Below, piece after piece: positions 2 through 26,255 of a stretch of DNA of 32,000 nucleotides. Numbering within the stretch: the first letter of the stretch is position 1; each line of letters begins with the position of its first letter. The stretch is from NCBI RefSeq assembly GCF_048300925.1, contig NZ_CP133759.1; one strand, 5' to 3'. The stretch is from Thermithiobacillus tepidarius DSM 3134. GTDB taxonomy: Bacteria; Pseudomonadota; Gammaproteobacteria; Acidithiobacillales; Thermithiobacillaceae. Below the pieces are notes generated by a model, which was not told the DNA's origin, searched no databases, and saw only the letters and a program-made list of their open reading frames with translations. Position numbers and translations under genes: made by a program.

Positions 2-808
2 CTGGTGGACGGTCGCCAGTACAGCTTCTTTTTCGTGCTGCCCCGCGCCTTCGATGCCCGCCGTCCTCCGCTTCAGCCGCAGGCGCTCTTCGATTTCCTG
101 GCACCGGCCATCGTCGGGACGTACCAAGCCCTGGGCCTGCCGGCGGCGGCGCAGGGCAGACATGATTTCTGGGTGAATGGCCGCAAGATCGCCGGCACCG
201 GTTCGGGCCTGCTGGGGCCGTGCCAGGTTTTTGCCAGCAGCTTCATGCTGGACTTCGACGCGGCTTTGTTCGCCCGCCTGGTGGCGGCGCCGTCCGCCGG
301 GTTCCGGGCCTGGTTGGCGGAAGCGCTGGCCGAGTCGATGACTTCCTGGCGCGCCGAGGGAAGCGTGCCGGCGCCGACGGCGCTGGCGGCGGCCCTGCGT
401 GCGCAGGTGGAGCGGCATCTGGGCTGGCGCCTGGAGGAAAGCGCGCCGACGCCCTCCGAGGCGGCCGCCATGGCCGCGGCCCTGGACGAGGTGGAGGCGG
501 ACGAATGGGAGGCGGAAAGCAGTTCGTCCAAGCGGCGCGTGCCATACGGCATCAAGGTGAAGGCGGACACCTATCTGACGGAGCGCCACTGGGATGGGGA
601 GTGGGTGCGCATTCTCACCCGTGCCGGCCGGATCGCGCGCGTGGCCGGGGCCGGCCCGCTGATGCAGGCGGCGATCACCGAGGCGGTGCTGGGTTGCCGG
701 CCAACCGCGCCCGAGCTGGAACCGCGCCTGCGGTGTCTCGGGCCGGCGGCGGCACGGCACTGGGCCGAGCGCATACGGCAGACGGCCCATGTGGAAGAGA
801 ATGGCTAG
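2..808 (+). CDS. lipoate--protein ligase family protein (LplA-like), 5' end cut by the window edge
   Basis: The frame is open from the window start. The segment GRHDFWVNGRKIAGTGSG resembles the LplA region around the catalytic lysine (GRND..V..RKVSGSA). The C-terminal ~90 aa (YLTERHWDGEWVRILTRAGRIARV...) resemble the LplA accessory domain. Stop TAG at 806-808. Confidence 0.6.
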   Translation: MVDGRQYSFFFVLPRAFDARRPPLQPQALFDFLAPAIVGTYQALGLPAAAQGRHDFWVNGRKIAGTGSGLLGPCQVFASSFMLDFDAALFARLVAAPSAGFRAWLAEALAESMTSWRAEGSVPAPTALAAALRAQVERHLGWRLEESAPTPSEAAAMAAALDEVEADEWEAESSSSKRRVPYGIKVKADTYLTERHWDGEWVRILTRAGRIARVAGAGPLMQAAITEAVLGCRPTAPELEPRLRCLGPAAARHWAERIRQTAHVEENG

Positions 809-820
809 AGAGAACGAAGC

Positions 821-1216
821 ATGAGCGACAAGACACCGACCATTCAGCGGCGCTTGCAGCGGGCCTACATCGTGATGTCTTCGGACCCGGAGATCATCGC
901 GGCGTTGCGGGCGGCCACGCCGGCCGGATGGGAGATGAAGGCCGTGACGGATCTGGAAGAAGTGGGCGAGTGGCAGGAAATCCTGCTGCATCGCTTCATC
1001 CTGGTGGATCTCGACGAGGTGGACGTCTTCGATCCGTTGGCGCCCATCCGGGAAGTGCGCACCGAATACATGCTGCAGACGCCGATTTTCTGCTTTGGCG
1101 GGGATGAGGTGGTGCGGGATCAGGCGCGGTTGGCCCGGGCGGACCGGTTCTTCGGGCGCGAGGAAATCGTGCGGCGCTTGCCGGAATTTCTGGAACAGTT
1201 CGGCTGGGGTGGGTAA
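821..1216 (+). CDS. hypothetical protein with an atypical CheY-like receiver pattern
   Basis: ATG lies 12 nt after the upstream stop. The beta-alpha pattern YIVMSSDPEII...FILVDLDE...PIFCFGG resembles a receiver domain, but the N-terminal acidic pair is SS rather than DD. Codon usage is GC3-rich like the neighbouring genes. Confidence 0.5.
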   Translation: MSDKTPTIQRRLQRAYIVMSSDPEIIAALRAATPAGWEMKAVTDLEEVGEWQEILLHRFILVDLDEVDVFDPLAPIREVRTEYMLQTPIFCFGGDEVVRDQARLARADRFFGREEIVRRLPEFLEQFGWGG

Positions 1217-1255: not shown

Positions 1256-1579
1256 TCAGCCGACCCAGACGTGCGCTTCGACATCCAGGCGCAGATCGAC
1301 GGTCTCGCTGCGGCCGCCGGCATTGACCGTGATGTTGGCGATGCGCACGCCCGGGGTGTTGAAGCTGACTTCGCAGCTGAAGGTGCCGGGGAGGGCAACG
1401 GTCTTGCTGCACAGCACCTTGCCTTCCGCCTCCAGCTCCACGTTGGCCTGACCGCTGCCGTCCAGCATGAGCTGCACGCGGAAAGGATGGCCCGCCACCC
1501 GGCGGTAGACTTGCGGGTCACGGTTGGCGTTGTACTGCAGGTTGTTCAGCTTGACCATTTTGATCAGTTTCTGGCTCAT
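1256..1579 (-). CDS. hypothetical protein (107 aa)
   Basis: Strong SD (aaaggagggcac-ATG). Alternating polar/hydrophobic pattern suggests a beta-rich protein. Divergent from the cbbQ-side genes. I recognise no family. Confidence 0.6.
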   Translation of the reverse strand: MSQKLIKMVKLNNLQYNANRDPQVYRRVAGHPFRVQLMLDGSGQANVELEAEGKVLCSKTVALPGTFSCEVSFNTPGVRIANITVNAGGRSETVDLRLDVEAHVWVG

Positions 1580-1711
1580 GTGCCCTCCTTTATGAGCGAA
1601 TAAGAAAAATTTGTAGATCTATCGGACGTTTGAAGGATACGTGGGGGCCTATGCTAAACGAAATTTTTACTGGACGATAGAGTGGCGGACGCCATATCGG
1701 GAGCGGGGTCG
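1580..1711. promoter_or_regulatory. AT-enriched divergent intergenic region, presumed to hold promoters for both flanking gene sets
   Basis: It is clearly more AT-rich than its surroundings (gaataagaaaaatttgtagatctatc...cgaaatttttactgg) and sits between divergent start codons. I could not pin down exact -35/-10 boxes. Confidence 0.3.
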
Positions 1712-2122
1712 ATGGAAAGCAAAAATGACTTGCCAGCAAAGCTGGATGCGGTAAACACCGCGCTGTTCGGATTGGAGCGGCGCCTGTCCCAGGGAGAAAA
1801 GCTGCCCCTGTCGGAGACGGTCGATCAAGCGATTGCCTTGGTCGAGGACATCCTGCGCGCCTTCGCCGATGCCGAGGGGAAGCCCTACGCCGAGTCCGAC
1901 CGCATCCTCGAGTTGTGGAAAAAACTGGTGAAAGGCGAGCCTACCTTGAATACAATCCGCGACAACTGTCGGGAACTGGTGTACTACCGCAACTGCATCG
2001 ACATGCAGCGCGAGGACGCCCTGCCGCCGCATCCGGAACGGATGGCCGTGCGGACCGCCCGCCACATCTACTTGTACATGCGCAGCCGCGCCGAGCAGCG
2101 CGGCATGCTGCAGGAAGACTGA
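1712..2122 (+). CDS. hypothetical helical protein (136 aa) immediately upstream of cbbQ
   Basis: The ORF track starts it at GTG 1682. The first ATG (MESKNDL...) is at 1712. The gene ends 32 nt before cbbQ on the same strand. I recognise no family. Confidence 0.6.
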   Translation: MESKNDLPAKLDAVNTALFGLERRLSQGEKLPLSETVDQAIALVEDILRAFADAEGKPYAESDRILELWKKLVKGEPTLNTIRDNCRELVYYRNCIDMQREDALPPHPERMAVRTARHIYLYMRSRAEQRGMLQED

Positions 2123-2154
2123 CGCCATACCAGCTTTAGCCAGCGGGAGAGTGA

Positions 2155-2955
2155 ATGGAAACCATGCGCACAGCCGCCGACCAGGCCCCTTTTTATCAGC
2201 CGGTCGGCAACGAGGTGGAGATTTTCGAGGCGGCCTACCGCAAGCGGCTGCCGGTGATGCTGAAGGGGCCGACGGGCTGCGGCAAGACCCGCTTCGTGGA
2301 ATACATGGCCCATCGTCTGCGCCGGCCGCTGATCACGGTGGCGTGTCACGAGGATCTCACCAGCTCGGATCTGGTCGGTCGCTTCCTGCTGGAAGGAGCG
2401 GAAACGGTCTGGCAGGATGGCCCGCTGACCCAGGCGGTCAAGACCGGAGCCTTCTGCTATCTTGATGAGATCGTCGAGGCGCGCACGGACACCACCGTGG
2501 TGATCCACCCCCTGACCGATCATCGCCGCCACCTGCCCCTGGAAAAGCGCGGGCAGGAGATCCAGGCCCACGACGACTTCATGCTGGTGATCTCGTACAA
2601 TCCCGGCTACCAGACCGTGCTCAAGGATTTGAAGCCCTCCACCAAGCAGCGCTTCGTGGCCTTGACCTTCGACTACCCGCCCGAGGAGATCGAGGCGCGG
2701 ATCGTGGCCCACGAAGCGGGCGTGGACGCGGCCCTGGCGGGCAAGCTGGTCGCCGCGGCGCGCAAGGCCCGCAACCTGAAGGACCATGGCCTGCAGGAGG
2801 TGACTTCCACGCGGGCGCTGGTCTACGCGGGCAGCCTGATGGCCAGCGGCGTGGCACCCCTGGAGGCCTGCCAGGTGGCTATCGTCAATCCGCAGACGGA
2901 TGATGCCGAGCTGGCGGAGGCGTTGATGGAGATTTTTCGGGCGTATTTTGGATAA
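2155..2955 (+). CDS. cbbQ: CbbQ/NirQ/NorQ-family MoxR-type AAA+ ATPase
   Basis: Walker A is [12 protein letters not shown] and Walker B is [11 protein letters not shown]. Colinear similarity runs over the whole 266 aa to CbbQ/NorQ as I remember them ([23 protein letters not shown]). I cannot separate CbbQ from NorQ by eye. Confidence 0.85.
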
Positions 2956-3036
2956 GTGGAGCGGGTTGGACTGGGCTGAAATTGGTTCAGTCCAATGGGG
3001 TTGAGGGTTGGAGCGGGCTTCCGCCCGCGGGTGCTT

Positions 3037-3345
3037 GGGTGTCGGGGGTTGCCCGACAGCCTGCGACCTTTGCCATTCGCTGCGCTCACGCTCGCCTGCG
3101 GCTCGCGAAAACGGGCAGCGCCCGTTGCCTGAGGCGCCGACGGCGCCGGCTCGGACAGGCACTCGCTCGTTGCTGCCGCCCCTGGCGGTAGGAGCGAGCT
3201 TGCTCGCGAGCCACTGTGCCGATGGGGAGGCAATCGCGAGCGAGCTCGCTCCTACGAGCCAGGATGCCGGCCCGCCAGGATTTGGCACGGCACCGCAGCC
3301 GCCCGGAATACCCGTTTCCGCGGAAAGCCGGCAGGTGAGAGGGAC
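3037..3345. repeat. composite REP/BIME-like intergenic element, copy 1 (between cbbQ and cbbO)
   Basis: It shares several modules with 18613-18882: a terminal hairpin G(T/C)CGGGGGTTGCCCG(A/G)C, a GTAGGAGCGAGC...GCTCGCTCCTAC palindrome pair, a ~50-nt conserved box (gccggcccgc.agg..ttggca.ggc..cgcagccgcccggaa.acccg), a second hairpin, and GGCAGGTGAG.GGGAC. Confidence 0.75.
3188..3255. repeat. REP-type inverted repeat pair (GTAGGAGCGAGCTTGCTCGCGA ... TCGCGAGCGAGCTCGCTCCTAC)
   Basis: The two ~22-nt arms are inverted copies of each other and each arm is itself a small palindrome. Same family as 18726-18793 and 18935-19001. Confidence 0.85.
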
Positions 3346-3464
3346 AATGCGGCTAGGGCGGGTTCGCTGCAAGATTGGATGCCCACGGAGCGACTTGGGA
3401 CTGGAGCGCAAGGTCAGGCATTCCACTCGCATTTCACGACTCACGTTTCACCTACCGGACGCAC

Positions 3465-5963
3465 ATGAACACTGCTGCTGAAGAAGTTCTCGAACACCTG
3501 GCCGCCATCAGCTTCGTCGCGGGGCGGGATGCGCGGGCGGCGTTGCCGGCGGTGGAGCCGCTGGGCGATGCCGCGGTGCTGCGCTATCTGGAAGCCGGGC
3601 GCGACTTGTTTTTTTACGATCGCGAGGCGGGCAAGGCGCTTTTCCAGCATACGGCGGCGCTGGTGCCCGCCTTCGGCGGCGTGGAGCCCTGGATCACGCA
3701 GGCGGACAGCTTTCGCAAGTTCCGCGGCAGTTGGAAGGCCCTGAGCGCCTTCCTCGAACAGGCCGGCGAGGTGCGCAGCCGCTACGGCGCGGAGGTGGAA
3801 ACCCGCTGGTACGAGCTGGGCTACGCCTTCCTGGCCAGCCACGTGGACAGCGGCACCGCCTTTTTCCGGGCACCCTTCGCCGAGCTGGCGGGGACGGCGG
3901 GCAGCGTGGCGCGGATGGAAGCCCTGCTCGCACCGGCCAGGGAGCTCCTGAATCAGCGGCTGGGACTCGGCACTTACCTGCAGGGGGCGCTGCGCGTGCG
4001 CCAGATGACCGACGACGCCGGTCTGCTGGACTGGGCGCGGCGCGGCGCCGACGTGCTGCAAAGCGGCCGTCTGCGCGGGGAGGCTTATTTCCGGTTGGAA
4101 AGCGAAGAGAGTCTGGGTTTCCTGCTGGAGGTGCTGCCCGGCTATCGCACCCGCTCTCAGCAGCGTCTGCTGGCCCTGCTGGTGCAGGCCTGGTTCGGCC
4201 TGCCCATGCCGCTGGAGGACAGCAACTGGGCGCCGGACAAGGGGCGCGCCTTCGTGGAAACGGACGGGCGCCGCCTGTTCGTGCCGGCCATCATGGCCGA
4301 CCGCGAGGAAGCCGTGCTGGCCCTGCTGCATACGGCGGGACACATCCGCGCCGGCAGCTACGACCGCGCGGCCATCGAGGCGCTTTTTGCCGTGATCGGC
4401 GTCGAGCATCCGCCCCTCGATGACCAGGAGCGCATCACCTGGCGCCCGCTCTTTGCCCAGTTCGGGCAGGACATGATCCGCTTCCAGCTGATCTTCGACC
4501 TATGCGAGGACCTGCGCGTGGACAACCGGGTCCGGCAGGAGGTGCCCCACTACCTGGAACGCATAGTGCAATTGGCCGAGCGTCGCCCGCGCCCCGCAGG
4601 GCCGGCCGGCGCCTATTTCACGGCGGCGCTGGAGCAGGCCAGGGCCCTGCTGGGCCAGGGCAGATTGCCCGAGCGGCTGCAGCCGCTGCTCGAACCCGGC
4701 GCCACCATCGTCGACAGCTTCCGCATCGCGCTGGCGTGGTACGCCGAGGACAGCTTCCCGTCCATTGCCCTGAGTCAGCGCGGCGAGGCTTACCTGCCCG
4801 GCCGCTCGCCCAACGCCGCCCGGCCGGTCTTCCCCACCCGCAAAGGCAAGCCGGTGGACGATGCCGGCGCGGATGAAGGCGGCTTGCTGGGCCAGCCCCA
4901 CGAGGAGGAACCCAGGAAGGAGGTGCCGCAGCAGGCCGCTGGTCACGATCCCGACTTCGACATCCCGCCGGAGGACACCAGCGGTCAAGGTGGGCGCGTG
5001 GGCGTGGGCAAGCCCATGCCGAGCAAGGTGACCGGCCGCGGGCGGGGCTTCAAGAAGACGGAAGGCGGCATTCCCTATCCGGAGTGGGACTACCGGGCGG
5101 GGAGCTTCAAGGCGGACTGGGCGCGCGTGCACCTGCGCAAGCTGCAGGAGGAGGACGCCGCCGAGGCCGAGCAGCTGATGGGCCAATATCGCAGCGCGCT
5201 GCTGCGCCTGAAAAAAGCCATCCAGGCGCAGAAGCCGACCCGCTTGGCCCCGCTGCGGCGCCAGATGGAAGGCGAGGAGATCGACATCGAGGCGGCGGTG
5301 CAGTTCGTGGCCGAGCGGCACGCCGGCCAGTCGCCCAAGGCCAACGTCTACCGCCAACGCCGTCAGCAGCACCGCGACACCAGCGTGCTCCTGCTGGCGG
5401 ACATGTCCACCTCCATCATGGCCCAGTTGCCGGACGGCGGCGGGCGCATCGTCGACCGCCTGCGCGCGGCCATGCTGCTCTTCGCTGAAGCGCTCAACGA
5501 GGTGGGCGACCCTTACGCCCTCTACGGCTTCGCCAGCAAGTATCGGGACAACGTGTCGGTCTATCCCATCAAGCGCTTCCAGGATGCCTTCGACTCCCGA
5601 GTGCGCGCCGTCATCGGCGGCCTGTCGGGACGCTTGGCCACGCGCATGGGCGCGGCCATCCGGCATGCCACCCGCACCATGCAGGCGAGTCCGGCCCAGC
5701 GGCGGCTCCTGCTCATCCTGTCGGACGGCCGCCCCTCCGATTACGACGACGGCGGCGACGCGCGCTACCTGCACGAGGACACGCGGATGGCGGTGAAGGA
5801 GGCGGTGGACGCCGGCGTGCATTCCTTCTGCATCACCCTCGACCCGCAGGGCAGCCAATATCTGCCCGGCATCTTCGGCGTCGGGCACTACTTGGTGCTG
5901 GATCATCTGGACAGCTTGCCGGCCCGGTTGCCGGAAGTGTATCTGCGCCTGCGCAAGGCCTGA
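3465..5963 (+). CDS. cbbO: CbbO/NorD-family protein with a C-terminal von Willebrand factor A domain
   Basis: YPEWDYRAG motif. The VWA MIDAS motif is present as LLLADMSTS (DxSxS) plus LILSDGRPSD. The size (832 aa) and the position after cbbQ also fit. I moved the start to ATG 3465, because the track start at 3375 would extend into the repeat-filled spacer. There is no clear SD at 3465. Confidence 0.8.
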   Translation: MNTAAEEVLEHLAAISFVAGRDARAALPAVEPLGDAAVLRYLEAGRDLFFYDREAGKALFQHTAALVPAFGGVEPWITQADSFRKFRGSWKALSAFLEQAGEVRSRYGAEVETRWYELGYAFLASHVDSGTAFFRAPFAELAGTAGSVARMEALLAPARELLNQRLGLGTYLQGALRVRQMTDDAGLLDWARRGADVLQSGRLRGEAYFRLESEESLGFLLEVLPGYRTRSQQRLLALLVQAWFGLPMPLEDSNWAPDKGRAFVETDGRRLFVPAIMADREEAVLALLHTAGHIRAGSYDRAAIEALFAVIGVEHPPLDDQERITWRPLFAQFGQDMIRFQLIFDLCEDLRVDNRVRQEVPHYLERIVQLAERRPRPAGPAGAYFTAALEQARALLGQGRLPERLQPLLEPGATIVDSFRIALAWYAEDSFPSIALSQRGEAYLPGRSPNAARPVFPTRKGKPVDDAGADEGGLLGQPHEEEPRKEVPQQAAGHDPDFDIPPEDTSGQGGRVGVGKPMPSKVTGRGRGFKKTEGGIPYPEWDYRAGSFKADWARVHLRKLQEEDAAEAEQLMGQYRSALLRLKKAIQAQKPTRLAPLRRQMEGEEIDIEAAVQFVAERHAGQSPKANVYRQRRQQHRDTSVLLLADMSTSIMAQLPDGGGRIVDRLRAAMLLFAEALNEVGDPYALYGFASKYRDNVSVYPIKRFQDAFDSRVRAVIGGLSGRLATRMGAAIRHATRTMQASPAQRRLLLILSDGRPSDYDDGGDARYLHEDTRMAVKEAVDAGVHSFCITLDPQGSQYLPGIFGVGHYLVLDHLDSLPARLPEVYLRLRKA

Positions 5964-5970
5964 GTGCGGC

Positions 5971-7173
5971 ATGAACGAGACCGACAAGTTTGCGCCCCGG
6001 AGCCTGCCCACCCGCGATGCGCTGTTCATCGGCGCGGCCCGCTACCGGCGGCCGAGCTACACCTCCAATCACCCGCTGGCCATCCCGCGGGTCTCCCTGG
6101 CCTTGGATCTCATCAACGCCTACGGCGCCATCACGCCCGCCGAGTACCTGACCGGCCGCAAAGCCAGCAACAAGGAGCTGACCTGGTTCCACGAGCCGGC
6201 CTATATCCAGGCGTTCCAGCGCGCCCAGTTCCGCGGCAAGGTGACCCAGGCCGATCGCGAGCGCTTCCAGCTCGGCAACCTGGAAAATCCGTATTTCCCG
6301 GATTTTTTCGACACGCCGAGCCTCGCCACCGGCTCCAGCATCCAAGGGGCGGAGCAGGTGCTCGCCGGGCGCACCGCCTTCAGTCCGGCGGGCGGCATGC
6401 ACCACGCCGCGCCGCATCAGGCGCGCGGCTTCTGCTATCTCAACGATCCGGCATTGGCTATCATGCGCCTGCGGCGGGCGGGACTGCGGGTGTTGTACCT
6501 GGATATCGACGCGCACCATGGCGACGGGGTGGAAGCCGCCTTCGTCGATGATCCGGAGACTCTGACCGCCTCCATCCACATGGACACGAGCTACGCCTAT
6601 CCCTTCCAGGGCGGCGGCATCGACGACCAGCCGGGTGGTGCCGTCAACCTGCCCCTGCCGCCGGGCATCAACGACGCGGAGTACCGCCTGGCCTTCCACA
6701 GCCTGTGGTCGCGGCTGCTGGAAGGCTTCCGGCCGGACGTGGTGGTGCTGCAGGCGGGGACGGACATCCTGACCCACGATCCCCTGAGCAAATTCCGGGT
6801 CTCCAACGGCGTGTTCTGGGAGGCGGCGACACGCGTCATCGACGAGAGTCCACGGCTGCTGGTGCTGGGCGGCGGCGGCTATCATCCCATCGCCTTGGCG
6901 CGCTGCTGGACCGGCGTGTGGGCGCGACTGACGGGACGCGCTCTGGACGAGCGCCTGCCGGATGCCGCCAGTGCCCTGCTGCGCGCCGTCAACTGGGAGC
7001 TGGACGACGAAGATGCCGAGGAAACCGAGCGGCTGTATACCCACTTGAGCGACCTGCCCAACGACGGCCCGGTGCGGGAAGAAGTGCGGGCGCGCGTGCA
7101 GCGGCTGCTGGACAGTCACCCGCTGCTGGCGCCGCGGGTCATGGCCGTCAGACAGATTGAAAGCAAGGACTGA
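5971..7173 (+). CDS. histone deacetylase-family (AcuC/class I HDAC-like) Zn-dependent deacetylase
   Basis: PAGGMHHA, the zinc-ligand motif LDIDAHHGDG and GGGGYH (catalytic Tyr) are all present. It starts 7 nt after the cbbO stop. Confidence 0.85.
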   Translation: MNETDKFAPRSLPTRDALFIGAARYRRPSYTSNHPLAIPRVSLALDLINAYGAITPAEYLTGRKASNKELTWFHEPAYIQAFQRAQFRGKVTQADRERFQLGNLENPYFPDFFDTPSLATGSSIQGAEQVLAGRTAFSPAGGMHHAAPHQARGFCYLNDPALAIMRLRRAGLRVLYLDIDAHHGDGVEAAFVDDPETLTASIHMDTSYAYPFQGGGIDDQPGGAVNLPLPPGINDAEYRLAFHSLWSRLLEGFRPDVVVLQAGTDILTHDPLSKFRVSNGVFWEAATRVIDESPRLLVLGGGGYHPIALARCWTGVWARLTGRALDERLPDAASALLRAVNWELDDEDAEETERLYTHLSDLPNDGPVREEVRARVQRLLDSHPLLAPRVMAVRQIESKD

Positions 7174-7183
7174 GACGAACCCC

Positions 7184-8332
7184 ATGCCAAACCAAGAAAC
7201 TGCATTGCTGCCCGGCCATGCCACGCCGGAGGGGACCAAGGCCTATCAGGCCCGCTTCGGCGCCCGCCTGCCCGAGTCGCATTACAGCGACTTTCTGAAG
7301 ACGCACATCAAGATGTCATCCATCGGCATCGGCACCTTTCCGGGGCAGCCCGACGAGGCCACCGACGAGGCCTACGCCCGGATCGTCAGCCGCGCGCTGC
7401 AGGAAGGGGTCAACGTCATCGATACCGGGGCCAACTACCGCTACGGCCGCTCTCCGCGCGCGGTGGGGGAGGGGGTGCGCCGGGCTTTGGCGGCGGGCGT
7501 GCCCCGCGAAGCCATGTTCCTGGTGTCCAAGGGCGGTTTCCTCACTCTGCCCGAGGGACGGCCCGACGACATGGCGGCTTTCTTCAGGCGGGAGATCATG
7601 GCCAAAGGACTGGGCTCGCCCGAGGACTTGGCCCAAGGCATCCATCTGCTGAACCCCGCCTACATCCTTTGGCAACTGGAGCAGAGCCGCCGGGCCATGG
7701 GCGTGGAAACCCTGGACGCCTTCCTGGTGGACCAGCCGGAGATCCACATTCCGCTGATCGGCAAGGAGCGCATGCACCGCAAGCTGCTGCGCGTTTTCGA
7801 GGCGCTGGAGATGGCGGTGGCGGCGGGCAAGCTGCGTTACTACGGTATTTCCACCTTCAATGCTTGCCGGGTCGAGACGGACAATCCGCTCTTCCAGTCC
7901 ATGACCAGTCTGATCGGCTTGGCGGAGAAGGCTGCCGGCGAGGGCAAGCGGCACCACCTGCGCATCGTGCAGATGCCCTTCAACTACCTGATGACCGAAG
8001 GCTTCACCCGCTTCAGCCAAGCCACCGGCCAGGGCAATGTGGCCTCCACCATCCAGGCCGCCTTCCAGCTGCGCCTGTATCTCATGGCCAGCCACACCCT
8101 GGGCAAGGGCATCCTGGCCCGCGAGAGCCCGGAAATCTTCCCGGCCATGATGCCCACGTTGGCCAATCCGGCGCAGCGGGCCATCCAGTTCAACCGCTCC
8201 ACGCCGGGGGTGGGCACCACCCTGGTGGGCATCAGCCAGCCGGCCCACCTGGAAGATGCGTTGGCGGTGGCGCGCAGCGAGCCTTTGCCGAAGGAGCAGT
8301 ATCTGAAAATGTATCAGCGGGCGGAGGATTAG
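7184..8332 (+). CDS. aldo/keto reductase family oxidoreductase
   Basis: VIDTGANYRYG supplies the Asp/Tyr of the AKR tetrad, VSKGG supplies the Lys, and the length suits a TIM barrel. ATG 7184 lies 10 nt after the upstream stop. The track's TTG start at 7157 would overlap the upstream gene and has no RBS. Confidence 0.8.
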   Translation: MPNQETALLPGHATPEGTKAYQARFGARLPESHYSDFLKTHIKMSSIGIGTFPGQPDEATDEAYARIVSRALQEGVNVIDTGANYRYGRSPRAVGEGVRRALAAGVPREAMFLVSKGGFLTLPEGRPDDMAAFFRREIMAKGLGSPEDLAQGIHLLNPAYILWQLEQSRRAMGVETLDAFLVDQPEIHIPLIGKERMHRKLLRVFEALEMAVAAGKLRYYGISTFNACRVETDNPLFQSMTSLIGLAEKAAGEGKRHHLRIVQMPFNYLMTEGFTRFSQATGQGNVASTIQAAFQLRLYLMASHTLGKGILARESPEIFPAMMPTLANPAQRAIQFNRSTPGVGTTLVGISQPAHLEDALAVARSEPLPKEQYLKMYQRAED

Positions 8333-8358
8333 GCCCCAGCGGAGCCGGCATTCGCACA

Positions 8359-8381
8359 GCAGCCCCCGCGCTGGGGGCTGC
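8359..8381. terminator. GC-rich hairpin between convergent genes
   Basis: gcagccccc-gcgct-gggggctgc gives a 9-bp perfect stem. It sits between stop 8332 (+) and stop 8401 (-). There is no U tract. Confidence 0.4.
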
Positions 8382-8400
8382 CCGGGCCGGGCGGGACAGC

Positions 8401-8685
8401 CTAGTGGCTGTAGCGGCGGTTCAGGAAGTAGAGCACGGACAAAAAGCCCAAGGCCAGCATGACGGAGTCCAGGTTGGGGTGGCGCGCCGGATGGGCTTCC
8501 TCCTCGGCCAGCAACCTGCTCAAGTCGGCTGCATCGGCTGCGCCCAGCGGAGTGCCAGACGCGCTGGCCAGCAGCGGGATGCTTTGCGGAGCCTGCGCCA
8601 AGGCGGTCAGCGGCATGGCTGCAAGCAGTATGGCGCAAAGGAACAGCAGAGCAAACAGGCTTCCCTTTGGAAGACGGTTTTCCAT
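8401..8685 (-). CDS. small secreted protein with a C-terminal hydrophobic anchor and basic tail (94 aa)
   Basis: SD is aaagggga-N5-ATG. The N-terminal signal peptide is LFALLFLCAILLAAMPLTALA/QA. The C-terminus is SVMLALGFLSVLYFLNRRYSH. I chose the start at the internal ATG (8685) rather than the track's 8712. Confidence 0.55.
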   Translation of the reverse strand: MENRLPKGSLFALLFLCAILLAAMPLTALAQAPQSIPLLASASGTPLGAADAADLSRLLAEEEAHPARHPNLDSVMLALGFLSVLYFLNRRYSH

Positions 8686-8918
8686 GTTTTTCCCCTTTGT
8701 GAGTTGATCCAAGCTTGGTGCGCTTTGCGGCCTTCAGATGCCGGCGCTGTTATGTTGACGCGGTGCAGCACTGAGTCGCTTTAAGTTCTCCCCGAGGCAA
8801 GTGTATGCCTTCCGGGAGGCGTGGCCATGAGGCCTTGGTCTGATTGGCAGGGGAGGTGCTGAATGCCGGGCCGACAGGCTGGGACTGGCGCCGGATTTCG
8901 CCCGGCTGCTCCCTGGTC

Positions 8919-9497
8919 TCAGCTCTCGTCATCCTTTTTCGGCGCCTGCTTGAGCCGGGCCAGCTCAGCCAGCATGCGCTCCTGCTCCGCGAAGGAGGGC
9001 GCGCGCTTGCCGGCCCCGTATCGGGTTTTGTCGGGCTCCTTGCCCTGGTTGACGGGCACATGGCCCGCCTGCTCCCGTTCCTTGGTGGACACATAGTCAT
9101 GCAGGCCCTGGTCGTAATCCGCGTAGCGTCCCTGGTAGCCAGGCGGGGCCGGAGGGGCGCTCTTGCTGAGCCACAGGGTCTTTCGCAGCTCCTTGTTGAG
9201 CTGGGAGATGCGGTCGGCGATGCGGCTGAGATCGTAGAGGGCCGCAGCCGCCATGGCTCCGAGCAGCACGGCGCCGGGCAGCGGCCAGCCTGCCGCGAAC
9301 AGGCCCAATGCCGCAGCGCTGGCTGCGGGGTAGAGCCAGAACCAGGGTTCCTTCAGATACCAGCGGTGCAGCCCCAGAGGGAACAGCAGCCACAGGGCGT
9401 AGGCCACGGCGGGCTTGCGTTGGGCGCGCAGTAGGCGCAGCTGCAGCGATTGCAGGCCGCCGCCTTCCAGATCCATTTTCTTCCATGTCTTGGTCAT
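8919..9497 (-). CDS. TM2 domain-containing membrane protein
   Basis: VAYALWLLFPLGLHRWYLKE followed by a second TM segment matches the TM2-domain pattern (..LG.HRFYLG.). The tail is hydrophilic and Lys/Glu-rich. Confidence 0.6.
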   Translation of the reverse strand: MTKTWKKMDLEGGGLQSLQLRLLRAQRKPAVAYALWLLFPLGLHRWYLKEPWFWLYPAASAAALGLFAAGWPLPGAVLLGAMAAAALYDLSRIADRISQLNKELRKTLWLSKSAPPAPPGYQGRYADYDQGLHDYVSTKEREQAGHVPVNQGKEPDKTRYGAGKRAPSFAEQERMLAELARLKQAPKKDDES

Positions 9498-9608: not shown

Positions 9609-10520
9609 ATGGCTGACAGAAGATTGCAAGTCTTTCACACCGTGGCCCGCCTGTTGAGCTTCACCAAGGCGGCCGAAATCCTGCACATGACGCAGCCGGC
9701 TGTCACCTTCCAGATCAAACAGCTGGAGGAGCAGTTTAACACACGTCTGTTTGACCGTACCCACAACCGCATCAGCCTGACCGAGGCGGGCACCATCGTT
9801 TTCGAGTACGCGGAGCGCATCCTCAATCTCTACAGCGAGCTGCAGAACCGGGTGGGCGAAATGACCGGGGACGTGCGCGGCGTGCTCCTGCTGGGCGCGA
9901 GCACCACCATTGCCGAGTACATGCTGCCGCGCGTGCTGGGGGACTTCAAGGAGCGCTACCCTGAGGTGCAGGTGCGCATGCACGTGGCCAATACCGACCG
10001 CATCGTGAGCATGGTGGAAGACAACACCATCGATTTGGGCGTGGTGGAAGCGGCGGTCAGCAACAAGAGCCTGGCCGTGCGCAAGTGCTGCATGGACCAG
10101 ATGGTGGCCATTTTCCCGCCGACCCATTTTCTGGCGCAGCAAAGCAGCGTGAGGGCGGCGGATCTGCTCAATTACGCCTTCGTATCGCGCGAAGAGGGGT
10201 CCGGCACGCGGGAAGTCACCAACGAGTATCTGGCCGCCGCCGGCCTGGACCCCAACGACCTCAACATCACCATGGAGCTGGGCAGCCCCGAGTCCGTCAA
10301 GGGCGCCGTGGAAGGCGGGCTGGGCATTTCCGTGGTGTCGGAAGCGACGGTGCGCAAGGAGATCGCCCTGGGCACGCTGGTGGCGATACCGCTGGAGCCG
10401 CCCCTGGCCCGGCCCTTCCTGTTCGTGTATCAGAAGCAGAAGTTCCGCAGCCATGTGATGGACGAGTTTCTGGAATTCGCCAAGGAGCGCTGCGGCGACG
10501 AGTGGGTCTTCCCGTCCTAA
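9609..10520 (+). CDS. LysR-family transcriptional regulator
   Basis: The N-terminal wHTH is LQVFHTVARLLSFTKAAEILHMTQPAVTFQIKQLEEQFNTRLFDR. The ~300-aa length and a C-terminal substrate-binding-type domain also fit. Confidence 0.9.
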   Translation: MADRRLQVFHTVARLLSFTKAAEILHMTQPAVTFQIKQLEEQFNTRLFDRTHNRISLTEAGTIVFEYAERILNLYSELQNRVGEMTGDVRGVLLLGASTTIAEYMLPRVLGDFKERYPEVQVRMHVANTDRIVSMVEDNTIDLGVVEAAVSNKSLAVRKCCMDQMVAIFPPTHFLAQQSSVRAADLLNYAFVSREEGSGTREVTNEYLAAAGLDPNDLNITMELGSPESVKGAVEGGLGISVVSEATVRKEIALGTLVAIPLEPPLARPFLFVYQKQKFRSHVMDEFLEFAKERCGDEWVFPS

Positions 10521-10549: not shown

Positions 10550-11290
10550 GTGAAGCGATTTGCCGTGGTGCAGCACAGCTATTCCGAATTTCTGGGCCTG
10601 ATCGAAACCCAGCTTGAGAAGCGCGACATCGGCTTCATCTACTTCCGGCCTTTCCTGGGCCAGGATCTGCCGGGCAGCGGCCTGCAATTCGATGCCCTCT
10701 TCCTGCTGGGCGGGCCCATGTCGCCGCTGGATAGCGGGCAGCATGCCTGGCTGCAGGACGAGATCCGCGTGATCGGCGCTTTCCGCCAAGCCAGGCGTCC
10801 CATCGTCGGCATCGGCATGGGCGCCATGCTGATGGCGGCTTACGAGGGGGCGCAGCTGAGCGCGGAGCCCGCCATCAACGCCTACTGGACCACGGCGCAC
10901 AAGACCCGCACCGGAGAGGGGGATCCCCTGGCCGAGGCAGTGGATGGTGAGCCCGTGCTGGTGTGGGCGCCGGGACAGGCGATCCTGCCGCCGGGCATGG
11001 AACCGATCCTGGTGGACGACGCCGGCCGCTGGATCGCCTTCCGCCCCGACGCCCAGAGCATCGGCATGCTGTTTCGGCCGGAAATGAAGCCGGGCATGAT
11101 CGAGGACATCCTCATGGAGGAGGACCGCGAAGTGCCCGAGAATGTCGGTGAGCTCATGGAACGCATGCGCGAGCTGTGGCCGCAGATGCAGCGCCAGACC
11201 GACAAGGTGGTGGTGGCGCTGGTGAGCAGCCTGCAGCTGATGCAGGAGCGCCACAAGCCGCCCGTGTTCAGCCTGAAGGTGGAGCAATGA
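10550..11290 (+). CDS. class I glutamine amidotransferase-like protein, apparently lacking the catalytic Cys and His
   Basis: GTG start has SD caggag-N6. It is colinear with the GATase1 pattern (FAVVQH...FDALFLLGGPMS...). The nucleophile-elbow position reads GIGMGAM instead of GICxGxQ, and the HPE position reads FRPE. The track ORF (10085..) overlaps the LysR gene in another frame. Confidence 0.6.
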   Translation: MKRFAVVQHSYSEFLGLIETQLEKRDIGFIYFRPFLGQDLPGSGLQFDALFLLGGPMSPLDSGQHAWLQDEIRVIGAFRQARRPIVGIGMGAMLMAAYEGAQLSAEPAINAYWTTAHKTRTGEGDPLAEAVDGEPVLVWAPGQAILPPGMEPILVDDAGRWIAFRPDAQSIGMLFRPEMKPGMIEDILMEEDREVPENVGELMERMRELWPQMQRQTDKVVVALVSSLQLMQERHKPPVFSLKVEQ

Positions 11291-11670
11291 CCGAAGTTGA
11301 GAAAAGACTGCTGCTGATCCTGGCGGATCTCGGCGAGACCGAACAGCGGAGCCTGCTGGATTTCGCGGAGTTTCTGGCGAGCCGGGCCGGTGCGGTGCGG
11401 GCTTTGCCCGCACCCCGGACGCGGGAGCCGGCGCAACCGGATCTGCTCCCGCGTCCCGAGCAGGAAACGGTGGTGGGCGCCATCAAGCGGCTGCGCCAGA
11501 GCTATCCCATGCTGGACCGGCGCAAGCTCCTGAACGAGACCTCCGCGGCCATGTCCAAGCATGCCATCGGCGGCGTCAAGGCGGAGATCGTCATCGACGA
11601 ACTCGAGGAGGTCTTCGCCCGTCATTACACTCTTTACTGCGAAACCTTCTACAGCGCCTCCGACGCGTAG
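11287..11670 (+). CDS. hypothetical protein (127 aa); the N-terminus resembles DUF2281-type helices
   Basis: Its ATG overlaps the upstream stop (ATGA), which suggests translational coupling. LLDFAEFLASR is reminiscent of DUF2281 from memory, unverified. The 3' end overlaps the convergent phoH2 gene by 22 nt. Confidence 0.5.
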   Translation: MTEVEKRLLLILADLGETEQRSLLDFAEFLASRAGAVRALPAPRTREPAQPDLLPRPEQETVVGAIKRLRQSYPMLDRRKLLNETSAAMSKHAIGGVKAEIVIDELEEVFARHYTLYCETFYSASDA

Positions 11671-13034: not shown

Positions 13035-13062
13035 GATGTCTGCCCTGTACTTGGAATGATCG

Positions 13063-13539
13063 CTAGGGAAGCCGCTTGACGAGATCCAGCATGGCGGCGG
13101 CGTGGCCATCCACCTTGACCTTGCGCTCCACGTGGGCCAGGCGGCCGTCGCGGTCGATGACGAAGGTGCTGCGCTCGATGCCCATGACCTTTTTGCCGTA
13201 CATGTTCTTTTCCTTGATCACGTCGTAGGCGCGGCATGCGGTTTCGTCGACGTCAGCCAGGAGCGGAAAGGGGAAGCCGTATTTTTCAGCGAACTTGCAG
13301 TGGGACTGGATGGTGTCGCGGGAGATGCCCAGCACCTCGGCGTCGGCGCCTTGGAACTCCGGGTACAAGGCGGCGAAATCGCGCCCTTCGGTGGTGCAGC
13401 CGGGGGTGTCGTCCTTGGGATAGAAGTACAGCACTATCTTCCGGCCGCGCAGGTCGGCAAGGCGGATCTGGCGCCCGTCATGGGCGGGCAAGGTGAAATC
13501 CGGTGCGGCGGCGCCGGTTTGCAAAGCGGTGTCGTTCAT
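13063..13539 (-). CDS. bcp: thiol peroxidase Bcp (peroxiredoxin, thioredoxin-dependent)
   Basis: APDFTLPAHDG...VLYFYPKDDTPGCTTE is the Prx active site. SD is ggagggga-ATG. The 359-aa track ORF is a read-through extension antisense to dapA. Confidence 0.85.
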   Translation of the reverse strand: MNDTALQTGAAAPDFTLPAHDGRQIRLADLRGRKIVLYFYPKDDTPGCTTEGRDFAALYPEFQGADAEVLGISRDTIQSHCKFAEKYGFPFPLLADVDETACRAYDVIKEKNMYGKKVMGIERSTFVIDRDGRLAHVERKVKVDGHAAAMLDLVKRLP

Positions 13540-18612: not shown

Positions 18613-18882
18613 AGGTGCCGGGGGTTGCCCGGCGGCAATCGGCTTTTTGCCGCTCGTTGCGTTCGCATTCTTGGACGCGCAAGCGAGTAGGTTGGGCTGC
18701 ACCTGCGTAGCCCAACGGGTTTAAGGTAGGAGCGAGCTGGCTCGCGATCCGCCACCCCGGCCGCCGCCCGATCGCGGGCCAGCCCGCTTCTACAGCCTAA
18801 GCTGCCGGCCCGCTAGGCTTGGCATGGCGACGCAGCCGCCCGGAACACCCGCTCTCTGGGGGAGAGGGCAGGGTGAGGGGAC
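18613..18882. repeat. composite REP/BIME-like intergenic element, copy 2
   Basis: It has the same modular order as 3037-3345: terminal hairpin, REP pair, ~50-nt conserved box at roughly 85% identity by eye, second hairpin, then GGCAGGGTGAGGGGAC. Confidence 0.75.
18726..18793. repeat. REP-type inverted repeat pair
   Basis: GTAGGAGCGAGCTGGCTCGCGAT ... ATCGCGGGCCAGCCCGCTTCTAC. The two arms differ by paired A/T to G/C changes that keep each arm's internal hairpin intact. Confidence 0.8.
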
Positions 18883-24274: not shown

Positions 24275-24285
24275 GAATCAGTATT

Positions 24286-25121: not shown

Positions 25122-25149
25122 CAACACTTCAATGAAACGGGTGCTGCCT

Positions 25150-26242: not shown

Positions 26243-26255
26243 TCTCGTTTCGGCC

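Follow-up and report, generated by a model that had tools for sequence, protein, structure and literature searches.

Which protein does a CbbQ/CbbO-type pair act upon when neither of its established clients is encoded beside it? The question is raised by a stretch of 32,000 nucleotides from Thermithiobacillus tepidarius DSM 3134 (here, the window), in which genes for a MoxR AAA+ ATPase (Q) and a VWA protein (O) are followed by genes for an HDAC-family deacylase and an aldo/keto-reductase-family protein (AKR). The first-pass annotation of this sequence had remarked on the lack of a nearby RuBisCO or NO reductase (NOR) client and had proposed that the pair serves another. No RuBisCO or NOR gene was found in the window or in the 11 kb that precede it, and that this is neither a RuBisCO nor a NOR pair is supported by a Q clade of its own, by the N-terminal half of O, and by the separate existence of RuBisCO QO pairs. 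The locus thus appears to encode a fourth CbbQ/CbbO-type MoxR-AAA+/VWA lineage, independent of both RuBisCO and NOR, and its position at the end of a lipoate-dependent sulfur-oxidation cluster points to a new client.

The locus in T. tepidarius

The six genes and the two intergenic regions of interest are as follows.

1256-1579, minus strand: u107, divergently transcribed 107-aa protein, part of the module core
1580-1711: AT-rich divergent intergenic region, presumed promoter region
1712-2122, plus strand: u136, 136-aa helical protein, upstream of Q
2155-2955, plus strand: Q, CbbQ/NorQ-type MoxR AAA+ ATPase, 266 aa, motor of the module (AAA_5 and CbbQ_C)
2956-3464: Q-O spacer with a dispersed REP-like palindrome (arms 3188-3209 and 3234-3255)
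3465-5963, plus strand: O, VWA protein, 832 aa (VWA Pfam matches)
5971-7173, plus strand: HDLP/AcuC-type class-I-like Zn-dependent deacylase, 400 aa (Hist_deacetyl, E 3.4e-70)
7184-8332, plus strand: divergent AKR-family protein, 382 aa (Aldo_ket_red, E 1.1e-23)

The locus had been described as a same-strand string of five genes beside a divergent 107-aa gene, and all six are found where they had been placed. The gaps, re-measured, are as claimed: 32 nt between u136 and Q, 509 nt between Q and O, 7 nt between O and the HDAC-type gene, and 10 nt between the latter and the AKR gene. The catalytic motifs ascribed to Q, O, and the HDAC-type protein are likewise all present and invariant across the family, and the AT-rich region said to be shared with the divergent gene is a stretch of 132 nt with a GC content of only 48.5%, against 65.9% for the whole window; a sigma-70 consensus scan found no site in it. 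The repeat reported in the 509-nt gap is a REP-like palindrome with 22-nt arms (3188-3255), of which further copies stand at 18726 and 18935 (0 expected by chance), and the position of the spacer palindrome coincides with an assembly gap in a sister assembly. In the other genera examined, Q and O are separated by less (76 nt in locus L088, 158 nt in L089, and 161 nt in L087), and the insertion is therefore taken to be lineage-specific.

Q and O as a separate lineage

Q matches AAA_5 (E 1.5e-34) and CbbQ_C (E 9.3e-31) in Pfam, and CbbQ 5c3c (E 2.6e-108) and NorQ 9qh4 (E 7.6e-96) in the PDB; its Walker A (GPTGCGKT), Walker B (YLDE), SYNPGY, and STRAL motifs are invariant in 75 sequences. The comparison with CbbQ and NorQ that had been suggested as a check places Q in a separate clade of the NJ tree, outside the RuBisCO-linked clade, with identities of 70-77% inside the clade, 57-65% to RuBisCO CbbQ, and 53-60% to NorQ. 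A 2015 listing entered this clade as 'non-Rbc associated', and it is not known to have been studied.

The MIDAS of O (D646-x-S648-x-S650, with T726 and D754) is invariant in 81 sequences, as are H289xxxH293 and E348-D349-x-R351. While the HxxxH and ED-x-R motifs are common to O and CbbO, a good match is limited to the last ~300 residues, where identity to a RuBisCO-linked CbbO is 34%; before that the similarity is remote (28% over 607 columns by hhalign). NorD (9qhd_G) also matches well only in the last ~300 residues, the alignment being confined to residues 531-829, and the N-terminal half of O gave no detectable match to the NorD N-domain. This half found only 52 matches among 1.84e9 representatives, and it occurs in about five full-length 50%-identity clusters (of 1.84 billion proteins), all from Acidithiobacillus, Pelomicrobium/Burkholderiales, and Chromatiales-type genomes. 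Judged by sequence, it is family-specific and only remotely CbbO-like, and a proposed function of the N-domains in VWA proteins associated with MoxR is to determine target specificity (PMC9976466). Q having its own clade and O its family-specific N-terminal half, the assignment of the pair to a separate lineage, neither the RuBisCO nor the NOR pair, is supported on sequence grounds.

Conservation and the link to the sHdr-LbpA cluster

The comparison set comprised 80 species-level loci from Acidithiobacillia, Beta-, and Gammaproteobacteria, at about 50-65% O identity. Across it, the six genes form a conserved module (u107 | u136-Q-O-HDLP-type deacylase-divergent AKR) common to sulfur-oxidising bacteria. 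Q adjoins O in all 61 loci scored, u107 is present in 48 of 56 and u136 in 34 of 58, the HDAC gene lies directly 3' of O in 46 of 73, and the AKR gene lies within 6 kb downstream of O in 35 of 55; every other neighbour, apart from those described below, recurs in 13 loci at most. The linkage of Q, O, HDAC, and AKR, for which accident had been considered, is conserved with both small genes across three proteobacterial classes and is not accidental.

In Thermithiobacillus the module is joined to the shdr-lbpA-lip cluster. The shdr-lbpA-lipS1-slpl(AB)-lipT-lipS2-lipY genes lie just upstream and run into the window start, in the order sHdrB2(CCG)-LbpA1-DsrE-LbpA2-LipS1-sLpl(AB)-LipT-LipS2-FadL(lipY)-u135-LplA2-u131-(module)-...-LysR-GATase, and all genes from sHdrB2 to GATase are co-directional except u107, a variable small gene, and the TM2 gene. 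The flanking features within the window are these.

5-808, plus strand: 3' part of LplA2, a divergent second lipoate-protein-ligase paralogue (LplA-B_cat)
821-1216, plus strand: u131, conserved 131-aa protein after LplA2, in 27 of 53 loci
8401-8712: variable small gene
8919-9497, minus strand: TM2-domain membrane protein (weak TM2 Pfam match)
9609-10520, plus strand: LysR-family regulator (NCBIfam LysR), first of a conserved LysR-GATase-u127 block
10550-11290, plus strand: class-I glutamine-amidotransferase-like protein, 246 aa (Pfam GATase, E 1e-05)
11287-11670, plus strand: u127, conserved 127-aa protein after the GATase-like gene, co-occurring with LysR-GATase

LplA2, cut by the window start, has 350 aa in full; LplA-B_cat matches the fragment at E 3e-08 and the full protein at E 3.1e-20, and the translated fragment contains a GRKIAG motif. 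LplA2 lies adjacent to the QO pair on its upstream side in 25 of 51 loci and LipS2 is adjacent in 14 of 47, links that span Acidithiobacillia and several gammaproteobacterial lineages; in Thioalkalivibrio K90mix, lipS1-lipS2 are TK90_0641-0644 and Q/O are TK90_0651/0652. u131, always accompanied by LplA2 and u135, has no Pfam or NCBIfam match, and its comparison with CheY was not significant. Downstream, the TM2 gene is a frequent neighbour (18 of 48 loci) of uncertain module membership, and the LysR gene lies within 10 kb in 22 of 48 loci, in Acidithiobacillia, Beta-, and Gammaproteobacteria. The GATase-like protein (NCBIfam PRK07053, E 1.6e-21) is possibly the counterpart of lipX, or GATase1, a 'putative glutamine amidotransferase' that is a recognised member of the shdr-lbpA-lip cluster (PMC10332631, PMC6067878), and u127 has no family match.

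The reading tentatively favoured here is that Q and O remodel a client belonging to the lipoyl-protein system of sHdr/LbpA, with an acyl-lysine hydrolase as helper; what we infer is which protein the client is, what the deacylase acts on, and what the AKR, u107, and u136 do. By analogy with CbbQO and NorQD, a Q hexamer would carry one O subunit, the MIDAS of O would grip a carboxylate on the client, and ATP hydrolysis would loosen the client, leading to the release or insertion of something. The client would be an sHdr-LbpA component, most probably LbpA, either by itself or bound to sHdr or to the enzymes that lipoylate it. The translationally linked Zn-hydrolase may strip an incorrect or damaged acyl moiety (acetyl, octanoyl, mercapto-octanoyl, or spoiled lipoyl) off a lysine of the client, the ligases sLpl(AB) and LplA2 together with LipS1/S2 would then rebuild the cofactor, and the AKR might handle a carbonyl by-product or precursor. 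In E. coli given lipS1-slpl(AB)-lipT-lipS2 alone, LbpA reaches only the mercapto-octanoyl stage (PMC10332631), a stall that makes missing helper factors plausible; the module genes are unmentioned in the sHdr/LbpA literature examined. Further, the taxonomic range of the module matches the lineages singled out as autotrophic sHdr-bearing Pseudomonadota, namely Acidithiobacillales, Acidiferrobacterales, Thioalkalivibrio, and Acidihalobacter (PMC11094781). The O family seems to be absent outside Proteobacteria, and it is no universal sHdr factor, since the sHdr of Aquifex, Hyphomicrobium, and archaea would work without it.

Alternatively, the client may be encoded far away (for example, a respiratory or sulfur-metabolism metalloenzyme), with adjacency to lip and shdr genes reflecting shared block ancestry and not function. 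In Betaproteobacteria (Sulfuriferula, Pelomicrobium, and L088) the module does stand alone, amid housekeeping genes and with no lip or shdr gene within 10 kb; one sub-group of loci keeps only Q-O; and synteny extends to the downstream TM2-LysR-GATase-u127 block, suggesting that large blocks are inherited as a whole. However, gene order persists across three classes at protein identities of ~50%, foreign genes (a betaine transporter, eda/edd, and an HD-domain gene) are tolerated only between sub-blocks, the link to a lipoate-ligase paralogue is found repeatedly, and orthologues of O and HDAC are co-induced with hdr. A distant client is on this evidence rather unlikely.

RuBisCO and expression on sulfur

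It is improbable that the locus is a fourth RuBisCO-directed module, in which Q and O would open inhibited RuBisCO, the deacylase would free acylated active-site lysines, and the AKR would reduce a released dicarbonyl sugar-bisphosphate inhibitor. Proven RuBisCO activase motors share 57-65% identity with Q, O resembles CbbO as a remote paralogue over most of its sequence and has two motifs in common with it, three Sulfuriferula MAGs carry eda and edd (sugar-acid metabolism genes) between Q and O, and every carrier is a RuBisCO autotroph. Yet RuBisCO genes lie within 10 kb in only 1 of 80 loci, behind their own regulator and with their own QO pair; in L040 a RuBisCO-linked pair and the module pair stand 6 kb apart. 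In T. tepidarius cbbQ/cbbO adjoin one of the two RuBisCO gene pairs (PMC5037610), and A. ferrooxidans has three RuBisCOs with one QO pair each as well as a module-type pair (PMC6458275), so the module pair is an extra one. Q falls outside the RuBisCO-linked clade, and the family is missing from RuBisCO autotrophs without sHdr in the list of Sutter et al. (H. neapolitanus, Thiomonas, Allochromatium, Nitrobacter, and Hydrogenovibrio). The first-pass annotation had allowed for RuBisCO or norCB genes upstream, an unconserved linkage, or a sole pair of RuBisCO type; found instead were no such genes in the 11 kb upstream, a conserved linkage, and a RuBisCO-linked pair in addition to this one in T. 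tepidarius (PMC5037610).

In A. ferrooxidans, AFE_2535 (VWA, log2 -1.5) and AFE_2534 (HDAC, log2 -1.6), both flagged 'S', are up on sulfur, as are hdr (log2 -1.9 to -2.6) and RuBisCO accessory genes, cbbO1 among them (PMC2754497); the orthologues of Q and AKR (AFE_2533) were detected by proteomics. Given that carriers are RuBisCO autotrophs and that cbbO1 responds likewise, distribution and expression do not separate the sHdr and RuBisCO readings.

The deacylase and the AKR

The nearest solved structure to the deacylase is Aquifex HDLP (1c3r, E 2e-86, residues 19-378). The GGMHH, DxDAHHGDG, D265, and GGGGYH motifs of the deacylase are invariant in 47 sequences. The AKR matches Aldo_ket_red at profile positions 4-148 only, that is, over the first half, and is nearly without PDB relatives by sequence. 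It keeps the Asp, Tyr, and Lys of canonical AKRs (D80, Y85, and K116, all invariant), whereas an invariant Asp (D183-Q-P-E) stands where the catalytic His would be.

Either enzyme might itself be the client, with Q and O inserting its metal or cofactor, as NorQD does with FeB. Assistance in metal insertion is known for MoxR/VWA pairs (PMC9976466), the HDAC-family signature motifs including the Zn ligands are intact, the HDAC gene follows O in the majority of loci, and the two genes, 7 nt apart in T. tepidarius, overlap by 4 nt in L088. However, beside O the HDAC gene is missing in 27 of 73 loci and the AKR gene in 20 of 55, independently: the AKR gene follows O directly, without HDAC, in some Thioalkalivibrio; loci with O-AKR but no HDAC include L054, L057, and L060; HDAC occurs without a nearby AKR in L077, L079, L085, and L088; and about one third of loci have neither beside O. 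Moreover, u107 accompanies Q-O more consistently than either enzyme, and to our knowledge HDLP/AcuC-type enzymes elsewhere need no QO-like helper. That either is the client is therefore doubtful; and because either can be missing, the earlier suggestion is not supported as regards an obligate client. Barring copies elsewhere in the genome, both behave as accessories of a core of Q and O with u107 and u136.

The small proteins

The first-pass annotation had put forward both u136 and u107 as candidate adaptors. The 486 homologues of u136 are all 'hypothetical', and its model (pLDDT 94.6) is a five-helix bundle whose fold is matched best by HEPN domains, HepT toxins among them (TM 0.64-0.68, E-values 0.24 or worse). 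Invariant positions include R83, D84, N85, Y91, Y92, C95, R117, and H118. MoxR-VWA pairs occur in conflict systems, and such a defence system with a HEPN-like u136 as effector would fit these fold matches, but the idea is close to refuted by their E-values, by R114-x3-H118 in place of the HEPN motif R-x4-6-H, by the lack of any PADLOC model match beyond generic P-loop similarity, by the fixed chromosomal position, high conservation, and narrow metabolic host range of the module, and by the dispensability of u136 in Thioalkalivibrio, from most of which it is absent. The 249 homologues of u107 are all unnamed, and its AlphaFold model (pLDDT 89) is an Ig-like beta-sandwich with generic fold matches only (TM <=0.57).

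Genomic organization of the module

To our knowledge, QO-type MoxR/VWA machines are understood for two clients only, RuBisCO and NO reductase. The present comparison shows that the CbbQ-like MoxR AAA+ ATPase (Q) and the 832-aa VWA protein (O) encoded here form a distinct, intact and conserved motor-adaptor pair of this type with fixed partners. The module and its relevant neighbours are as follows (unnamed small proteins are designated by their length in amino acids; LplA2 is a second lipoate-ligase paralogue):

5-808, + strand: 3' end of LplA2, an LplA-B_cat protein cut by the window start
821-1216, + strand: u131, conserved unnamed protein
1256-1579, - strand: u107, divergent gene
1712-2122, + strand: u136, unnamed small protein
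2155-2955, + strand: Q, AAA_5 and CbbQ_C domains
3465-5963, + strand: O, C-terminal VWA domain
5971-7173, + strand: HDAC-family gene (Hist_deacetyl Pfam, E 3.4e-70)
7184-8332, + strand: AKR-family gene, Pfam match to the first half of the profile only
10550-11290, + strand: class-I GATase-like gene, downstream of the module

The six genes of the module lie where the first-pass annotation had placed them, with the intergenic gaps of 32, 509, 7 and 10 nt that it had given, and the divergent spacer it had called AT-rich (1580-1711) does have a GC content of 48.5% against 65.9% window-wide. The repeat that it saw in the 509-nt gap is likewise real. It is a palindrome with 22-nt arms (3188-3255; GTAGGAGCGAGCTTGCTCGCGA) that recurs at 18726-18747 and 18935-18956, where the chance expectation is 0, and not a tandem repeat, of which a dedicated search found none; in a sister assembly a 100-N gap coincides with the Q-O copy. 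Given this recurrence, and given that Q-O spacers in other genera measure about 76-160 nt as against 509 nt here, we take the palindrome for a dispersed REP-like element whose insertion is specific to the present lineage. A scan for promoters and terminators found nothing exceeding shuffled expectation. The window is 100% identical to AUIS01000007.1 (T. tepidarius DSM 3134).

Conservation and distribution

Members of the O family are found full-length, at 50-65% identity, in sulfur oxidisers. Scanning one genome per species gave 297 matches, of which the best 80 were taken as the loci for comparison; presence of each neighbour was scored by tblastn with the T. tepidarius proteins, counting only loci with enough flank.

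Presence of T. tepidarius proteins at O-family loci (best 80 of 297 matches)
Q: 61/61
u107: 48/56
u136: 34/58 (lost in most Thioalkalivibrio)
HDAC: 46/73 (directly after O)
AKR: 35/55
u131: 27/53
LplA2: 25/51
u135: 25/50
LysR: 22/48
FadL: 21/47
LipS2: 14/47

These counts define a core of Q-O and u107, usually with u136, which HDAC and AKR often join as accessories; another block that is often present is u135-LplA2-u131. Q and O adjoin in all 61 loci, as the general definition of a MoxR AAA+/VWA pair has it, and the Q-O-HDAC linkage, which might have been an accident of one genome, is not accidental. No other neighbour occurs in more than 13 of these loci (best 80 of 297), and clustering of the unexplained neighbouring ORFs returned only lineage-specific housekeeping genes. 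Unrelated genes have been inserted only at the borders of sub-blocks: a betaine ABC transporter separates u131 from u107, an HD-domain gene stands between HDAC and AKR, and in three MAGs of Sulfuriferula without HDAC and AKR (L040:7384-9918; also loci L032 and L039) eda (KDPG aldolase) and edd (6-phosphogluconate dehydratase) part Q from O. Either HDAC or AKR may be lost without the other, and in one sub-group Q-O alone is retained. An SDR gene near such Q-O-only loci was considered as a substitute for the AKR and rejected, since an unrelated methyltransferase gene in the opposite orientation lies between it and O.

Carriers comprise the Acidithiobacillia, Betaproteobacteria (Sulfuriferula, Sulfurirhabdus, Pelomicrobium and MAGs) and, among the Gammaproteobacteria, Thioalkalivibrio, Acidihalobacter, Thiohalorhabdus, Acidiferrobacteraceae and MAGs. 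Compared at the level of taxa, they agree with the groups named as bearing sHdr, the lipoate-dependent sulfur-oxidation system (PMC11094781, PMC6382920). Outside Proteobacteria the O family appears to be absent, and all carriers are also RuBisCO autotrophs.

Relationship to CbbQO and NorQD

Q has the AAA_5 plus CbbQ_C architecture with intact Walker motifs and matches solved structures of CbbQ at E 1e-106 to 1e-108 and of NorQ at 1e-93 to 1e-96. Identity within its family is 70-77%, as against 57-65% to three RuBisCO-linked CbbQ and 53-60% to two NorQ, and in a neighbour-joining tree (five references, no bootstrap) 19 members of the Q family form their own clade outside 5c3c, 6l1q and the RuBisCO-linked Q of L040, a locus that carries both a RuBisCO-linked and a present-family pair. 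Sutter et al. 2015 (Sci Rep 5:16243, Suppl. Table 1; PMC4633670) independently set apart a fourth, 'remote, non-Rbc associated' cbbQ class, and the existence of the clade was thus already known. That class, which includes TK90_0651(0652), Tgr7_2164(2163), Lferr_2164(2163) and Atc_2333(2332), is the same thing as the present Q, and the listed genomes carry the present family; the gene positions in K90mix and HL-EbGr7 fit L077-type loci and locus L089, respectively, Tgr7_2164/2163 being the pair that fits L089. The listing also lumps in a Nitrosomonas NorQ-type pair and describes no partners, context or function (PMC4633670), and the open-access text yielded no report of the clade's partners, context or link to a sulfur-oxidation cluster.

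The position of O is more remote. [quoted passage not shown] Against the RuBisCO-linked CbbO of L040, identity is 34-36% over the last ~300 residues; the N-region is homologous to CbbO at profile level only, in a remote match (28% over 607 columns) with HxxxH and ED-x-R motifs common to both. O is therefore a distant CbbO paralogue and not a NorD. Since CbbO residues 1-444 bind the CbbQ ring (PMC5437159), a similar role may explain the residual homology of the N-region. The N-domains of MoxR-associated VWA proteins have been proposed to be target-specific (PMC9976466), and a phmmer search with the N-terminal 520 residues of O found only 52 proteins among 1.84 billion representatives, nearly all from the present family; about five are full-length clusters, and their genomes are those of Acidithiobacillus, Pelomicrobium/Burkholderiales and the Chromatiales type. 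The weakest matches, which are also the only remote relatives beyond the family, are Nitrospira/Nitrospirales VWA proteins (P0400, P0406 and P0412; 26-31% identity).

[quoted passage not shown] Unlike CbbQO, however, the present pair is never part of a cbb operon or a carboxysome operon, is found alongside genuine RuBisCO-linked pairs, and has partners (u107, u136, HDAC, AKR) not reported beside cbbQO. T. tepidarius has cbbQ/cbbO adjoining a RuBisCO gene pair (PMC5037610), and A. ferrooxidans has three RuBisCO-linked QO pairs (AFE_1678/1677, AFE_3053/3054 and AFE_2156/2157; PMC6458275), its member of the present family being AFE_2536-7/2535. The present pair is consequently additional to the RuBisCO-linked ones, neither the genome's sole QO pair nor clustered with RuBisCO activases. 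Resemblance to NorQ/NorD (NirQ/NorD, for maturation of cytochrome c-dependent NO reductase; 9qh4-9qhg) extends to Q and to the linker and VWA half of O, and many O-family members are named 'NorD' in NCBI annotation. With no NorD N-domain match and no NOR-type genes nearby, this widespread automatic name is unsupported and is corrected here.

That no RuBisCO or NO-reductase client is encoded nearby had been read from the window, and it holds beyond it. The window and the region upstream contain neither cbbLS, cbbM nor carboxysome genes. The window ORFs scanned and the upstream called genes gave no hit to a COX1-type, cytochrome-c or NOR family, and the remainder of the window is housekeeping. 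RbcL matched in one of the 80 loci, in a separate unit, and annotated recurrent neighbours in these loci (best 80 of 297) are housekeeping genes with no norCB or denitrification setting.

HDAC, AKR and the small proteins

The catalytic signatures of the module, including the motifs that had been noticed in Q, O and HDAC, are all invariant across the family. HDAC is closest to Aquifex HDLP (E 2e-86, nearly full length in the 1c3r alignment), and its HH, DxDAHH, D and GGGGYH motifs (charge relay, Zn ligands, catalytic Tyr) are unchanged in 47 sequences. It shares the class-I-like lysine deacetylase fold and signature motifs with Aquifex aeolicus HDLP and Bacillus AcuC, but its gene has a fixed place behind a MoxR/VWA pair, and the cluster lacks both AcuA, the partner of AcuC, and acetyl-CoA synthetase. 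The AKR matches Pfam over profile positions 4-148 of 291 only and has almost no solved relative by sequence; of its tetrad D80, Y85 and K116 are invariant, and the usual His is replaced by an invariant D183.

The suggestion that the HDAC or AKR is itself the client, for metal loading, draws on this tight linkage, but each enzyme can be missing without the other and is accordingly down-weighted as an obligate client. Hence the first-pass proposal of a client other than RuBisCO or NO reductase is well supported, whereas its choice of the HDAC or AKR is not and we regard it as improbable.

It had further proposed the two small proteins as candidate adaptors. Pfam and NCBIfam have no match for u107, u136, u131, u135 or u127. 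The 486 homologues of u136 are all unnamed; its model (pLDDT 94.6) is a five-helix bundle whose best fold matches are HEPN domains (TM 0.64-0.68, E 0.24 or worse), with conserved residues R114-x3-H118 and no HEPN R-x4-6-H motif. For u107, which has 249 homologues, the model is an Ig-like sandwich with generic fold matches only, and fold searches of u107 and u136 gave no functional lead. That the module belongs to a conflict system is highly improbable, PADLOC having no defence-system model that matches.

The sHdr-LbpA neighbourhood

The key context of the module lay outside the window. RuBisCO or norCB genes just beyond the window start had been named as a finding that would overturn a separate client; the called genes there are shdr-lbpA-lip genes. 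On the same strand these run in the order CCG-domain protein (sHdrB2 type), GcvH-like LbpA1, DsrE, LbpA2, LipS1-type radical-SAM protein, LplA+LplB-type ligase, geranylgeranyl-reductase-family flavoprotein (LipT type), LipS2-type radical-SAM protein, FadL-type porin(s), u135, the divergent LplA-B_cat protein LplA2, and u131. [quoted passage not shown] A LysR gene, the GATase-like gene and u127 follow the module downstream. With shdr-lbpA-lip genes on one side and the GATase-like gene, a candidate lipX counterpart, on the other, the module is bracketed by lip-type genes.

The module is thus likened to the sHdr-LbpA cluster in adjoining it, in being flanked by lipY and the GATase-like gene and in its link to a second ligase paralogue, and differs in being found also away from lip genes. 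Continuity with the shdr-lbpA-lip cluster extends over three lineages (Thermithiobacillus, Acidithiobacillus and some Thioalkalivibrio), and TK90_0651 lies seven genes after lipS2 (TK90_0644). In the Betaproteobacteria the module is unlinked to lip or shdr genes, its six genes sitting among housekeeping genes. The table of Sutter et al. has no such pair in sHdr-less H. neapolitanus, Thiomonas, Allochromatium, Nitrobacter and Hydrogenovibrio (PMC4633670). Open-access sHdr-LbpA literature contains no mention of Q, O, HDAC, AKR, u107, u136, LplA2, u135 or u131 that we could find, nor did open-access text link CbbQ, NorQ, VWA or HDAC proteins with sHdr or LbpA.

Several further observations concern these flanks. 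The trio u135-LplA2-u131 (window 5-1216 together with 7186-9062 of locus L001) includes an LplA2 of 350 aa whose C-terminal ~150 aa are without assignment; u135 has a conserved NELNKY(R/K)KGKK stretch, and u131 a receiver-like beta-alpha pattern whose comparison with CheY is not significant. By hhalign, no relation was detected of u135 to LbpA or of u131 to CheY or LbpA. The LysR regulator (9609-10520) scores 266.8 against the NCBIfam cut-off of 250 for 'selenium metabolism-associated LysR', and the LysR-GATase-u127 block accompanies the module in three classes. Directly upstream of u135-LplA2 in L031, a gammaproteobacterial MAG locus, there is another HDAC-family paralogue (~5212-6100), which has 34% identity to the module HDAC.

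Expression

In iron-versus-sulfur arrays of A. ferrooxidans, AFE_2535 (VWA; log2 -1.5) and AFE_2534 (HDAC; -1.6) are flagged 'S' (PMC2754497 and supplement), and hdr genes range from -1.9 to -2.6 (PMC2754497). Both genes are thus up on sulfur like hdr, a co-regulation seen in one organism and one array study; Q and AKR are detected by proteomics (PMC6450195 supplement). RuBisCO accessory genes are likewise higher on sulfur in the A. ferrooxidans arrays, so that expression does not discriminate between an sHdr and a RuBisCO client.

Candidate clients and mechanism

From this context we tentatively favour a component of the sHdr/LbpA lipoyl-protein system as the client of the QO pair, with a deacylase-ligase rebuilding cycle. 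By analogy with CbbQO and NorQD, Q6O1 would grip a carboxylate of the client through the MIDAS and remodel the client with ATP. The HDLP-type hydrolase might then free a lysine, most plausibly the one that bears the lipoyl group in LbpA, of an acyl group that is wrong or damaged, whereupon the ligases and LipS1/S2 could rebuild the cofactor and the AKR could handle a carbonyl by-product. The sLpl(AB) ligase accepts free octanoate or lipoate only, and E. coli with a four-gene helper set brings LbpA only to the mercapto-octanoyl stage (PMC10332631); these limits leave room for extra factors. Against an sHdr/LbpA client stand the isolation of the module in Betaproteobacteria and the RuBisCO autotrophy of every carrier, and given its apparent absence outside Proteobacteria the family cannot be a universal sHdr factor.

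A stronger form, which we consider possible but unlikely, sees in the module a kit for activating and repairing a sulfur-oxidising enzyme that depends on a lipoyl carrier, in which the AAA+/VWA pair would pull stalled or damaged LbpA off sHdr or maturation enzymes, the HDAC would act as delipoylase or de-octanoylase, and LplA2 would reload the lysine. If true, the principle known from RuBisCO activases would apply to an enzyme of energy metabolism as well, and the cluster would hold the first Zn-HDAC-type lipoamidase within a dedicated cofactor-repair cycle.

Another client, not encoded nearby, with synteny retained by descent, has a similarly modest chance; the Betaproteobacterial arrangement accords with it, and the repeated linkage of the module to a lipoate-ligase paralogue points the other way. 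Repair of RuBisCO is somewhat less probable still: the carriers' autotrophy and the sulfur-raised accessory genes fit it, and the separate Q clade, the coexisting RuBisCO-linked pairs and the position outside cbb operons do not.

An operon of SirTM, a macrodomain protein, GcvH-L and LplA2 has reportedly been described by Rack and colleagues (Rack et al. 2015) in Staphylococcus and Streptococcus. As in the present cluster, a dedicated lipoate ligase paralogue and a lipoyl-carrier system would there be combined with an oxidoreductase and with an enzyme, from the deacylase world, that modifies lysines or proteins, but with a sirtuin/ADP-ribosyltransferase in place of a Zn-HDAC, a luciferase-like oxidoreductase in place of an AKR, and no AAA+/VWA pair. 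The comparison is a functional analogy only.

Implications

A third, tightly conserved, expressed and sulfur-induced QO lineage that has an adaptor domain of its own and constant enzymes as partners offers a concrete way to find a new client and allows testing of how adaptor N-domains set specificity. Should the client belong to the sHdr-LbpA pathway, which is relevant to bioleaching, acid mine drainage and soda-lake sulfur cycling, the module could account for the halt of LbpA lipoylation at the mercapto-octanoyl stage when the host is heterologous, and could show the source of free octanoate or lipoate for sLpl(AB) in obligate autotrophs. Nine unstudied genes (u135, LplA2, u131, u107, u136, Q, O, HDAC and AKR) would likewise be added to the pathway.

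Other features of the window

Just downstream of the AKR gene, 8401-8712 (- strand) encodes a small hydrophobic 103-aa ORF, called as 94 or 40 aa in sister strains and not conserved beyond Thermithiobacillus. Directly after LysR-GATase-u127 lies a PIN plus PhoH-like ATPase fusion (11649-13109, - strand), in the same place in sister strains. GC content drops to 0.56-0.60 at 24001-27000, as against ~0.66 elsewhere, and several ORFs there have no Pfam match; this stretch may be a foreign insert. Finally, some 20 kb from the module, another lipoyl protein is encoded at 27880-30870 (- strand), an unusual 996-aa E2-E3 fusion in which two stretches with lipoyl-domain hits are combined with an E3-binding domain, the catalytic domain of a 2-oxoacid dehydrogenase E2 and an entire dihydrolipoamide dehydrogenase (E3), next to which lies an E1-beta gene (31024-31995, - strand).
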